From: an uncultured bacterium
GTDB lineage: Bacteria; Cyanobacteriota; Vampirovibrionia; Gastranaerophilales; Gastranaerophilaceae
Direction of reading: 5' to 3'
Assembly (NCBI GenBank): GCA_948433295.1
Contig: CAOJDT010000001.1
Coordinates: 1,869 to 65,868, forward strand
Length of the DNA stretch: 64,000 bases
How positions within the stretch are numbered: position 1 is the stretch's first letter; every line of letters begins with the position of its first letter. Below are positions 2,948 through 18,874 of this stretch, piece after piece. The notes below the pieces were generated by a model that saw nothing but the letters and a program-made list of their open reading frames with translations, had not been told where the DNA came from and did no database searches. The translations under genes and the position numbers were made by a program.

Positions 2948-3790
2948 TTATAACTTATACGGATAGTCATCCTTAAACTCCCACCCGTCTAATTTCAAAA
3001 GTTGTCCGCAAAAAGATTTACTACCGTATTTACAGAACCTCAAGACATTATCCCGATTTTTAAAATTTCTTGTTACAGGAGTTTCACCCTCTGGCAACCT
3101 GTCATTAATATTAGTGATTGTATCCCATTCAAGCCACGTAAAAGGTTCAAAAGTACCGCGTCCCATTAGAAAATGATATTTATCAATTGCTTCTTTGTTA
3201 GGACCTTTATCTCCGTTAATATCCAAAAACACATCTATAACAACCCCACCTTTATACATTTGTAAACGGGTACCTTCAGAAAAATATACATTATAATAGA
3301 TTCCACTCTTTTTTGTCTTTACAATATTTTTAAAATAAGGTGCATAATATGTATTCCAAAAGACTTCAACATTATCTGCACCTCCGCTCGGAAGTACCCA
3401 ATCAGCGTTAGTAGTATTATTTTCTGCATTATACATCAATGCTGCTTGTGCCATTAAACTGTTAAACTTTTTAAGCCTGGTTGAGTATTCTTGTTTTTTA
3501 TATTTTTGAATCAGCGTCGGCATAGTCATTGCCGCGACAATTCCGATTATGCCAAGGGTTATCAAGACTTCCGCAAGCGTAAACCCGATTTTTCGACTCT
3601 GCCGAACAAACGATTGAGTATCGTTTGTGAGAGGTAGTGGAGCGCAAGCGAAACTCGTATGGTGCCGGTCGGACGTTACTCCGCTGGCACCCCGAATAAA
3701 TCGGGTAAACAGAGTATATCCTGCCACAAACCCTTGCCCTGAGAGGAATCTAGTTTGCCCCCCCCCCCGTTTTTTCAAGTATAGCAACAT
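2948..3790 (-). CDS. Prepilin-type N-terminal cleavage/methylation domain protein (pseudopilin paralog 1)
   Basis: KIG|FTLAEVLITLGIIGIVAAMTMPTLIQKY class III signal. The C-terminal LDINGDKGPN...DGWEFKDDYPY is shared with paralogs at 6586 and 17921. The start is uncertain. ATG 3790 is in frame. The SD-proximal ATG 3797 is in a different frame across the G11 tract. Confidence 0.8.
   Translation of the reverse strand: MLLYLKKRGGGQTRFLSGQGFVAGYTLFTRFIRGASGVTSDRHHTSFACAPLPLTNDTQSFVRQSRKIGFTLAEVLITLGIIGIVAAMTMPTLIQKYKKQEYSTRLKKFNSLMAQAALMYNAENNTTNADWVLPSGGADNVEVFWNTYYAPYFKNIVKTKKSGIYYNVYFSEGTRLQMYKGGVVIDVFLDINGDKGPNKEAIDKYHFLMGRGTFEPFTWLEWDTITNINDRLPEGETPVTRNFKNRDNVLRFCKYGSKSFCGQLLKLDGWEFKDDYPYKL
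3758..3768 (-). repeat. Homopolymeric G11 tract (C11 on + strand) at the 5' end of pseudopilin 1
   Basis: Counted directly as 11 consecutive C on the + strand. It begins 29 nt after the A of the SD-proximal ATG (3797). Confidence 0.95.
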
Positions 3791-3882
3791 TTTTCATAGT
3801 TTCCTCCAATTCGTCCAATTAAACTTTACTGCGGTTCATCCGCTTATGCAATAATTATATACTATTTTTTAATGGTTTTCAA

Positions 3883-6585: not shown

Positions 6586-7536
6586 TTACTTACAAGTTTT
6601 CTTTCCGTCCCAAGCAAGGTCATTACAGTGAAGATATTCCATATTCTCATTATAAATAACCCACGCGGCACATCCATAACCGTCACCCCCGTTAATACAA
6701 TCCTTATCAAAGGTACGTTCATTAGCGTTCACATTTTGGCTACCTAGTGGACGAATTTTATCTCTATAAATGTTAAAATAAAAAACATCTTTTCCTACCG
6801 TGTTAGGTAAAGCCTGAGGTCCGTTAATATCAATCGAAAAATCACCACAAGCAGATTGTATACAATTAATATTAGATATCCATCCTCCCATCAAAACGCT
6901 TCCATCTTTCAATTTTATAAAAGAGGAGCTCCTTTTATTTCTATTTGTACCGTTTAAAAAATATTGCCCCGAAATACTGCACTTTCCAGCGGTGTCGTCA
7001 ATACATACAGAAGTAGTGCTCATAAAAGGAGTTAATTTTGACCAAAATATTTCAAAATTCTTGTACGCATCAGCAGAAAGCCCTTGCTCATCCGTATCGT
7101 CGAATGAGGAATTCTTATCAAATCCCCAGTAATTAATATCGCCGTATTCGTTACGTGCCATCAAGTATGCTTGACTTACTGTGCTATAAGCTTTTTTTAG
7201 TTTTGTTACCGTAACTTTTTCCTGATGTTTTTGAATCAGCGTCGGCATAGTCATTGCCGCTACTATTCCGATTATACCGAGAGTGATTAAGACTTCGGCT
7301 AAAGTAAAGGCGGCTTTTGCATTGTCATTCTGAAACGTAGACTGTTCTGTCCTACATGAATTGTTACCGTTCAGAATCTCCGTTTCATTCTCGTTTGCGT
7401 TTTTCAATTTCCAAAAGACATTAGTCGACAAAAACGCTTTCAAATTTTTCGTGTAGTTTGTAATTATTCGTGCAAAGTGCTTTCTACTTTTTTGTTCCAG
7501 AGTAGTGCTGCGACTCAGTCGCCCCCCCCCCCGCAA
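6586..7536 (-). CDS. Prepilin-type N-terminal cleavage/methylation domain protein (pseudopilin paralog 2)
   Basis: KAA|FTLAEVLITLGIIGIVAAMTMPTLIQKH motif and IDINGPQALPNTVGKDVFYF core. The ORF as tracked begins at TTG 7536. The SD-proximal ATG at 7561 is out of frame across the G11 tract. Confidence 0.8.
   Translation of the reverse strand: MRGGGRLSRSTTLEQKSRKHFARIITNYTKNLKAFLSTNVFWKLKNANENETEILNGNNSCRTEQSTFQNDNAKAAFTLAEVLITLGIIGIVAAMTMPTLIQKHQEKVTVTKLKKAYSTVSQAYLMARNEYGDINYWGFDKNSSFDDTDEQGLSADAYKNFEIFWSKLTPFMSTTSVCIDDTAGKCSISGQYFLNGTNRNKRSSSFIKLKDGSVLMGGWISNINCIQSACGDFSIDINGPQALPNTVGKDVFYFNIYRDKIRPLGSQNVNANERTFDKDCINGGDGYGCAAWVIYNENMEYLHCNDLAWDGKKTCK
7522..7532 (-). repeat. Homopolymeric G11 tract at the 5' end of pseudopilin 2
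   Basis: 11 consecutive C on the + strand. It begins 29 nt after the A of ATG 7561. Confidence 0.95.
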
Positions 7537-17920: not shown

Positions 17921-18766
17921 TTACCAAGGGTAATCTTTTTTTAACGTCCAACCGTCAATCATTATTACAGCACCGCAGTATCCGCCTGTACCGGTCTCAC
18001 AGGCAAATGAAGGCACATCAATGTTGCTTCCAATACCGGACATTAAAGCTTCACGTGACGGAGCAGGATGACAATCTAAACCTTTCGGGAAAAAACCGAG
18101 TTTTTTAATACATTCCGTAGCAGTTGGTCGTCCTGCATCTCCCCAACTCATAAGAAACGGAAAGATATCTTTACCTATAGTGTTAGGCTTTTTAGGTCCG
18201 TTAATATCTATATAAAACCATCCGCCATTTCCAGTTCTATGAAGCCAATAATAAACAGAATACCCAGAAGATGTTAGAAAAGACATACCTTTAACATTAA
18301 TTGAAGTTTCAGTACCTTTTATTGTATAAATCTTATCTGTCCAACATTCTGAAGAAGATGGAAGGCATTTTTTTACAGTTTTAATATTCGGAAACATATA
18401 ATTTTCACCAAAGTATATGTCTCTTTCATCAGCATCATCAATATTTCTAAAATCCCAAGAATCCAGAGTTCCGTAGGAACTTTCGGAAATCCTGATTGCT
18501 TGATTTATTTCAGAATAAGCTTTTTTTAATTGCGTAAGTGTTTGTTGTTTTTGATATTTAGCAATTAACGACGGCATTGTCATTGCAGCCACTATTCCGA
18601 TTATGCCCAAGGTAATCAATACCTCTGCCAGAGTAAAGGCTTTTTTACGAAATAGGTTACAATGAGTTACGCCCGTAACATCTGATGTTATATTAAATGC
18701 ATTTATATTATGATGTAAAAATTTAAACGGAGAGCTTAAAAGACCTGCCCCCCCCCCCGAAAACAA
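17921..18766 (-). CDS. Prepilin-type N-terminal cleavage/methylation domain protein (pseudopilin paralog 3)
   Basis: KKA|FTLAEVLITLGIIGIVAAMTMPSLIAKY, YIDINGPKKPNTIGKDIFPF and the C-terminal DGWTLKKDYPW. The tracked start is TTG 18766. The SD-proximal ATG 18788 is out of frame across the G11 tract. Confidence 0.8.
   Translation of the reverse strand: MFSGGGAGLLSSPFKFLHHNINAFNITSDVTGVTHCNLFRKKAFTLAEVLITLGIIGIVAAMTMPSLIAKYQKQQTLTQLKKAYSEINQAIRISESSYGTLDSWDFRNIDDADERDIYFGENYMFPNIKTVKKCLPSSSECWTDKIYTIKGTETSINVKGMSFLTSSGYSVYYWLHRTGNGGWFYIDINGPKKPNTIGKDIFPFLMSWGDAGRPTATECIKKLGFFPKGLDCHPAPSREALMSGIGSNIDVPSFACETGTGGYCGAVIMIDGWTLKKDYPW
18748..18758 (-). repeat. Homopolymeric G11 tract at the 5' end of pseudopilin 3
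   Basis: 11 consecutive C on the + strand. It begins 30 nt after the A of ATG 18788. Confidence 0.95.
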
Positions 18767-18874
18767 CTGTGGTTAGTGATTTTGACATGTAACTCTCCTT
18801 TTCATAAATTACAGTATTTATTATAAACTATTTTTCAATAAATTTCAACAATTTTTTCATAGTATAATATATTT

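Follow-up and report, generated by a model that had tools for sequence, protein, structure and literature searches.

Does a ribosome-binding site that can pair with a segment lying just beyond a homopolymeric tract make up a translational control device, or does the tract alone act as a switch? The question is raised by a 64,000-nt stretch of DNA (hereafter the window, meaning the whole stretch analysed; GenBank assembly GCA_948433295.1, contig CAOJDT010000001.1, positions 1,869 to 65,868) from a metagenome-assembled genome of Gastranaerophilaceae (1.96 Mb, 36% G+C). The minus strand of the window carries three pilin modules, here termed paralogs 1, 2 and 3, each with a tract of 11 guanines (G11). 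The third is the pseudopilin 3 locus, in which the tract lies between a Shine-Dalgarno (SD) sequence, GGAGAG, and its complement, CTCTCC. A previous sequence-only reading had seen in such pairs a suggestion of a conserved translational control element, coupled to tract length or to translation of the leader peptide. Our analysis favours another account, to which we assign a probability of roughly 0.6: a phase-variable type IV pilin-like gene has its 5' switch cassette in this segment, and the complement is a property of one module type rather than a control coupled to the tract. The anatomy of the cassette, the length polymorphism between samples, the frame logic and the distribution of the complementarity are documented below; the regulatory role of the helix is presumably little or none.

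The switch cassette and its alleles

At pseudopilin 3 we see a slipped-strand phase-variation module, ordinary as a switch but placed in an extraordinary family. Found by way of its neighbour gene, the locus was retrieved from five other assemblies, in which its tract has 11, 12, 12, 13 and 13 G between identical flanks. The product toggles with this length: 11 G give a 21-aa peptide, whereas the G13 allele is an intact 289-aa prepilin open reading frame (ORF) from the SD-proximal ATG. The earlier expectation that 10 or 13 G would fuse this ATG to the pilin frame agrees with the frames, and for 13 G the allele shows the fused product. Two other loci were found to vary too (G8/G9 and G11/G12), and replication slippage is presumably what changes the lengths. 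The elements of the cassette, followed by the two sister modules of the window, are:

18820-18848, minus strand: sigma-70-type promoter, TTGAAA-17 nt-TATAAT, near-consensus (11 of 12 consensus matches)
18793-18798, minus strand: SD sequence GGAGAG, in the context AAAGGAGAGTTAC, 4 nt ahead of the ATG
18723-18788, minus strand: leader ORF of the 11-G state, by translation; ATG 18788, 21 sense codons (MSKSLTTVVFGGGGRSFKLSV), TAA 18723-18725
18748-18758, minus strand: G11 tract, the slipped-strand switch, beginning 30 nt after the ATG; lengths differ between samples
18729-18736, minus strand: SD-complementary segment AGCTCTCC, with CTCTCC at 18729-18734, within the conserved block TTTAAGCTCYYY, in which an off-frame TAA is also found
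17921-18766, minus strand: ORF in the pilin frame, listed with 281 aa from TTG 18766; a true product only when fused to ATG 18788
18578-18649, minus strand: prepilin N-terminal motif RKKA↓FTLAEVLITLGIIGIVAAMT, residues 40-63 of the listed ORF, with the presumed peptidase cut before F44 (18635-18637)
3758-3768, minus strand: sister module, paralog 1; G11, SD GGAGGAA, TTCCTCTC after the tract
7510-7532, minus strand: sister module, paralog 2; G11 (7522-7532), then the local hairpin GCGACTGAGTCGC (7510-7522)

Along the minus strand the cassette reads AAAGGAGAGttacATG(18788)...TTTTC-G11(18748-18758)-CAGGTCTTTTAAG-CTCTCC(18729-18734)-G, with 13 nt between the tract and CTCTCC. The coordinates and letters that had been given for the SD, the ATG, the tract, the gap and CTCTCC are all correct, as is the exact complementarity of GGAGAG (18793-18798) to CTCTCC (18729-18734). 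The stop of the 11-G state had also been placed correctly at the TAA; the accompanying count of 20 codons, however, holds only for those after the ATG, the total being 21 sense codons. The promoter layout recurs upstream of paralogs 1 and 2. The window holds three G11 tracts in all (3758-3768, 7522-7532 and 18748-18758), where 0.11 runs of 8 G would be expected by chance.

The pilin frame is +1 relative to that of ATG 18788, and fusion takes place at 10 or 13 G. The only start listed for the pilin frame, TTG 18766, lacks an SD and lies two codons downstream of a TAA. Only tracts of 10 or 13 G yield the pilin product; neither ATG, GTG nor TTG occurs in this frame between the tract and FTLAEV. 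According to the mechanism that we propose, a strong promoter and a strong SD with its ATG would drive translation of a 10-codon leader ending in the slippage-variable tract. With 11 G the ribosome would make the 21-residue peptide and stop; with 10 or 13 G it would read through a leader of ~50 residues to the prepilin cleavage site KKA↓FTLAEV. The pair GGAGAG/CTCTCC would form at most a weak long-range helix, damping initiation equally at every tract length.

The likeness of the product to type IV pilins is confined to its N-terminus. The pilin-frame ORF matches Pfam N_methyl with 24.3 bits (cut-off 21.2), while TIGR02532 remains slightly below its cut-off (15.7 against 16.3) and DUF6613 below the Pfam cut-off (18.4 against 24.3 bits). 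The cleavage motif KKA↓FTLAEVLITLGIIGIVAAMT combines a hydrophobic helix with E at +5, position -1 being A rather than G, and likeness to solved pilins does not extend beyond the N-terminal helix. In place of a short basic prepilin leader (~6-30 residues), the G13 allele has a leader of 51 residues, and the pilin-frame leaders as listed comprise ~68 residues in paralog 1 and ~85 in paralog 2. The genome encodes a prepilin peptidase (Peptidase_A24, PF01478, above cut-off; contig C35, 14530-14922), which presumably cuts the leader at KKA↓FTLAEV. The leaders between tract and cleavage site at 3550-3790 and 7320-7536 of the window (minus strand; 44-85 residues) are unrelated between paralogs, and that of paralog 1 contains a perfect 9-bp hairpin, ACAAACGAT-ACTCA-ATCGTTTGT.

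The frame logic would be void if homopolymer lengths had been miscalled during sequencing or assembly. Many contigs do break at real tracts, and runs of ~50 nt of G or C stand at contig ends (for example C8:39983-40034 and C40:15848-15900); such terminal runs are typical of two-colour Illumina chemistry and are most likely its artefacts. Miscalling is nevertheless unlikely, given that ordinary long ORFs with a G8 tract keep their frame. Assemblies made independently by ENA metaSPAdes and by Logan moreover agree on the flanks and give discrete lengths, some of them in frame, and the same modal length recurs in ~20 unrelated assemblies. Taken together, we consider an artefact to be extremely improbable.

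The locus is one of a genome-wide family. The source genome (G000) contains 106 G/C tracts of 8-16 nt, 55 of which have the modal length of 11, against just 3 of length 7; the distribution of G-run lengths is bimodal, with a separate hump at 9-13. About 80 of the 106 tracts lie inside one and the same cassette, consisting of an SD, a start, 8-12 codons, Gn, a variable linker and [GA]FTLAEVLITLGIIG..., and a pilin ORF with FTLAEV can be read after ~50 tracts. A pilin query yields 141 matches here, and most species of the genus yield 85-145. The largest subfamily has the leader MKTIDMTAF-G11-CAACTGAGTTGCAGC. Pseudopilin 3 belongs to type 3, which is defined by the post-tract block CARRGTARTTTAAGCTCC and is the dominant cassette in several species; in type 3a an internal start can be dismissed, as a pilin-frame TAA stands upstream of the tract and no start follows it. 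Homopolymer phase variation is a textbook matter for pathogens; here ~100 cassettes of a single pilin-like family occupy a 2-Mb genome from an uncultured lineage that is a common commensal of the human gut. A literature search found no paper on poly-G switches or pilin expansion in Melainabacteria. The switch type may also reach beyond the pilins: a G10 tract at 11393-11402 of contig C53 interrupts a non-pilin repeat protein, leaving an AEDARK-repeat ORF of 275 aa and, at a +1 offset, a second ORF of 329 aa, and this gene may encode another phase-variable surface or secreted protein.

Complementarity to the Shine-Dalgarno sequence

All three paralogs of the window do possess a 6-nt complement (GAGGAA/TTCCTC, AGAGTA/TACTCT and GGAGAG/CTCTCC in paralogs 1, 2 and 3, respectively), as had been noted before; that of paralog 2, however, does not qualify as an SD pair, nor is it retained in its own subfamily. 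When the post-tract segment is dinucleotide-shuffled, 6 nt are reached in 11.5%, 2.5% and 17% of cases, in the same order, and the three pairs are individually not convincing beyond chance. We therefore turn to the family at large, for which the ribosome-binding-site window (-15 to +3) of 73 modules was compared with the 40 nt after the tract, recording the longest Watson-Crick complement and its value in dinucleotide shuffles. A complement of at least 6 nt is present in 14 modules (19%) and missing from 59; the mean longest complement is 4.53 nt, as against 4.35 nt in shuffles, and the largest subfamily shows complements of 2-4 nt only. As a base rate, among 528 ordinary genes of this genome preceded by GGAG or GAGG, 9.8% have at least 6 nt at the same distance. 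Among other module types in other genomes, at least 6 nt were found in 6 of 45 (39 without), and several of the six are type-3 variants.

Folding points the same way. Over the 5' regions of the modules, ensemble pairing of the SD core with the post-tract segment averages 0.21, compared with 0.29 in shuffles, and reaches at least 0.5 in 11 of 72 modules. Folded as a whole, the 111-nt leader RNA does not surpass its shuffles (z = -0.21; 74 of 200 shuffles fold as well). The minimum free energy (MFE) structure of paralog 1 pairs CCUCUC with the G tract, and in the fold of paralog 2 the SD is free while the local hairpin forms. No known RNA family was recognized, the best Rfam match being caiA at chance level (21.5 bits against a cut-off of 55.5; E = 0.21). 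The assembly lacks the 3' end of the organism's own 16S rRNA, where the anti-SD of the ribosome would lie. An element conserved across the family, as the sequence-only reading had proposed, is contradicted by these counts; that reading had itself named members without an SD-complementary segment as telling against it, and within the family such members prevail.

What survives of the proposed conservation is confined to type 3, in which the SD-complementary motif CUCC(UU/UCC), 13-15 nt after the tract, is retained across the genus. Here a number of observations weigh against our preferred account, and several of them would fit a selected helix that masks the SD until translation of the leader, or the state of the tract, frees it. 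A complement of at least 6 nt is found in 43 of 52 type-3 copies; among 71 unique copies taken from 12 genomes the share is 75%, far above the base rate of 10%. Two type-3 sub-clades have perfect 6-7-bp registers of their own, AAGGAG:CTCCTT and (A)GGAGAG:CTCTCC(T), and one double change, ATGGAG:CTCCAT, occurs. At pseudopilin 3 itself the helix is predicted in both the MFE and the centroid structure with P = 0.95 (13% of shuffles equal it) and extends to GGAGAGUU:AGCUCUCC. Mean duplex energy is -7.86 kcal/mol in the family and -5.75 kcal/mol in ordinary genes, with values of -13 kcal/mol or below in 7 of 73 modules as against 0.6% of ordinary genes. Within the 40 nt that follow the tract, 37% of modules have CTCC or CCTC, six times the 5.9% of ordinary genes. 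Finally, the AGC and TCC of the block are unusual serine codons for a genome of 36% G+C, and the block displays no codon periodicity, which together argue for constraint at the nucleotide level.

The substitution record of type 3 tempers this picture. Cognate pairs are better than swapped ones over the whole set (0 of 5000 permutations), but among the 25 paralogs of the relative G006 they have no advantage (-12.74 against -12.84; 3762 of 5000). With metagenomes included, 125 type-3 copies comprise 79-80 with AAGGAG/CTCCTT, 21-22 with AAGGAG/CTCCAT, 6 with CTCTAT, 3 with ATGGAG/CTCCAT and 4 with GGAGAG/CTCTCC. The three ATGGAG/CTCCAT copies amount to one compensated event, whereas CTCCAT or CTCTAT stands uncompensated opposite an unchanged SD in 27-28 of the 125 copies, about a quarter; compensation is sparse, with two events at the level of sub-clades (GGAGAG:CTCTCC and ATGGAG:CTCCAT) against 27-28 uncompensated copies. 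Paralog 1 offers a natural counterpart, since an allele of it (window 3743-3807, sample ERZ14864034) has TTACTCTC in place of TTCCTCTC, with SD and G11 unchanged.

The block also carries information of other kinds. Its invariant core in G006 and in a second relative, G008, is TTTAAGCTC, which includes a TAA, and more divergent type-3 copies keep TAAGCT alone (e.g. TAAGCTTTTTCC); in type 3a, TAA stops shut both off frames within 13 nt. In the pilin frame the block encodes a conserved Leu-Ser-Ser motif of the leader, and its common variants are either synonymous (TCC>TCT) or conservative in kind (TTA>ATA, Leu>Ile), a pattern that would fit constraint on the peptide as well as on a helix. Two type-3a loci of G008 (L139 and L141) are brought into the pilin frame by loss of one leader A, GTAAAGACA > GTAAGACA, which would be a stable ON state.

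Of the suggested coupling to tract length we see nothing. The 11-G frame stops 3 nt past CTCTCC, so ribosomes cover the segment in the off state as they do in the fused, on state, and one G more or less would have no evident way of altering its availability. An SD helix selected for translational control thus appears quite unlikely: the complement is missing from most modules and from the largest subfamily, ensemble pairing does not surpass that of shuffles, uncompensated variants occur in type 3 and in paralog 1, and exposure of the anti-SD, lying at this locus inside the translated leader in both frames, is independent of tract length. What these comparisons leave would be a C/U block that is conserved in type 3 alone and of uncertain meaning. 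We advise against annotating the SD/anti-SD pair as a regulatory element of these switches; a literature search found no paper on an SD/anti-SD device coupled to poly-G tracts.

The enrichment of CTCC and CCTC is a matter of its own, as it spans several module types of the source genome and falls to 4.7% in a window further down the same leaders. One might suppose that the C/U-rich segment pairs with the G tract rather than with the SD and, together with a hairpin whose loop is UGA, forms a structure that affects slippage (as DNA or RNA) or the passage of ribosomes. Predicted pairing of the tract with the post-tract 45 nt is indeed 0.58 per tract base, compared with 0.26 for a transplanted control (Wilcoxon 2e-9), while the gain for the SD in the same folding is marginal (0.23 against 0.15; p = 0.06); in the MFE structures the tract pairs with CCUCUC in paralog 1 and with CACUACUCUG in paralog 2. 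Such pairing is, however, what composition predicts, as a G run will pair with any C/U-rich stretch (24.6% against 18.7% C), and G-U pairs have no counterpart in DNA. The hairpin lies 5-7 nt after the tract in ~32 of 82 modules, and that of paralog 2 (7510-7522) is of this kind; the stem, of 4-5 bp, varies from copy to copy, whereas the loop is always UGA, the stop codon of one off frame. Among 12 distinct versions the bases pair in 96.7% of cells, and both sides change in 4 of the 5 pairs, but the rows were selected for having a stem, and a control window shows the leaders to be rich in palindromes anyway. We look on a structural role of this sort as doubtful, and keep to a phase-variable cassette in which the tract itself is the switch.

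The resting length of the tracts

Nearly all modules stand exactly one G above their in-frame length. The counts are as follows (+1, one G above the in-frame length; +2, two above):

Source genome, FTLAEV-motif method, 51 loci: +1 in 45, +2 in 1, in frame in 5
Source genome, long-ORF method, 59 loci: +1 in 47, +2 in 6, in frame in 6
G006, type-3 copies: +1 in 23 of 23, all but one of them G10
G008, type-3 copies: +1 in 10 of 13
Some 20 human-gut metagenome assemblies, type-3a copies: +1 in 60 of 64; G10 in 72 of 83 tracts
Same metagenome loci, tracts not selected by pattern: +1 in 9 of 12
G012 and G005 (relatives), unbiased draws, lengths 9-16: +1 in 8, +2 in 6, in frame in 6 (8 of 20 at +1)

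The metagenome copies were collected by sequence pattern, a first pattern (the type-1 leader) having given no match. Across samples of the source species, 8 alleles are at +1, 4 at +2 and 3 in frame. The +1 relation holds across combinations of leader length and tract length (36+9, 35+10, 34+11, 33+12, 25+11, 29+11 and 30+11), and cassettes of the G006 type have G10 plus one extra post-tract base where the source genome has G11, so that the offset outlives a change of modal length. A mutational mode at 11 is insufficient as the sole cause, given that the G9, G10 and G12 classes of the source genome are also at +1; it fails likewise on the G10 tracts of G006, G008 and the metagenomes. The simplest reading, after Bayliss et al. 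(PMC3401435), would be that the modal length is a mutational attractor and that the flanks have been selected so as to make this attractor OFF, with ON one deletion away.

The regularity raises the possibility that the +1 state is itself productive through recoding, either because the polymerase slips and loses one G or because ribosomes slip +1 on GGG, giving low output of all modules, with changes of length in the DNA merely adding a high-level state. The counts of 47/59, 23/23, 10/13, 60/64 and 9/12, and their persistence in module types that differ in leader and tract length, would be accounted for in this manner; each module has a strong promoter and SD, and GGG is read by tRNA-Gly(UCC) alone, no tRNA-Gly(CCC) having been found. 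Against this, in-frame alleles occur naturally at pseudopilin 3 and at other loci (G13, G8, G9 and G10), two species (G012 and G005) show all three states about equally, and neither a conserved shifty stop nor a fixed stimulator is present, the distance to the zero-frame stop varying by type. The pilus loci of Bifidobacterium breve also rest at G11/G12 and are ON at G10, and have been shown to act by replication slippage (PMC9187656). Decoding of GGGG by a four-base anticodon was rejected, as ARAGORN finds tRNA-Gly with GCC and UCC only and no tRNA with an expanded anticodon. On balance recoding as the working state strikes us as unlikely.

A broader proposal, which we advance tentatively and hold to be improbable, is that selection keeps the ~100 modules one G above their in-frame length, in one of two ways. 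In a self-resetting version, ON would be reached by the commonest, -1 deletion and would then decay back; in a leaky version, transcription slipping by -1 nt or ribosomes slipping +1 on GGG would add a low, constant output to that of the DNA switch. Either way, the C/U block (the 'anti-SD') and the UGA-loop hairpin might be slippage context and not masks of the SD. Should selection maintain the +1 state, the loci would not be random coins but would confer biased, self-resetting or leaky expression on the surface repertoire.

Relation to known systems

In ermC-type attenuation and in the ROSE and fourU elements, SD helices are conserved and covarying, and a stalled ribosome or temperature controls alternative structures. 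The present cassettes resemble such SD-sequestering leaders in that a downstream pyrimidine-rich segment can pair with the SD and, at pseudopilin 3, a short ORF lies between the arms. They differ in that the helix is absent from most members, shows almost no covariation and has no alternative pairing tied to the tract.

Other parallels are found among phase-variable pilus genes. In pilC1 and pilC2 of Neisseria, reportedly described by Jonsson and colleagues in 1991, a poly-G tract is said to lie in the region coding for the signal peptide. As there, the tract of the present cassettes falls within a cleaved N-terminal leader, and the mature protein is therefore unaffected by changes of length; unlike the Sec signal peptide of pilC, however, the leader here is of the class III prepilin kind, and has 40-85 residues instead of the usual 6-30.

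Common to the sortase-dependent pilus genes of B. breve and the present family are a gut-commensal host and a G tract within the coding sequence of a pilus gene. In strain UCC2003, the majority of bbr_0113 and bbr_1889 tracts are G11/G12 and OFF, the rarer G10 is ON, and a -1(+3n) indel produces the ON state, for which enrichment in vivo was found (Penno et al. 2022, PMC9187656). That system consists of two loci for Gram-positive sortase pili with the tract inside the gene, whereas here about a hundred loci encode type IV pilin-like proteins and the tract comes 10 codons in.

The contingency loci of Campylobacter jejuni resemble the modules in having a 5' coding G tract in genes for surface structures, a sharp mode and length polymorphism between populations. 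In C. jejuni, mutation of poly-G/C tracts depends on their length, with insertions at G8 and deletions at G11, and this pattern leads to a modal tract length (Bayliss et al. 2012, PMC3401435). Compared with the ~30 loci and the mode of 9 in that species, the present family has ~100 loci and a mode of 10-11; its members form a single gene family, all of them with the same kind of promoter-SD-leader cassette, and their mode falls on the same +1 state almost everywhere.

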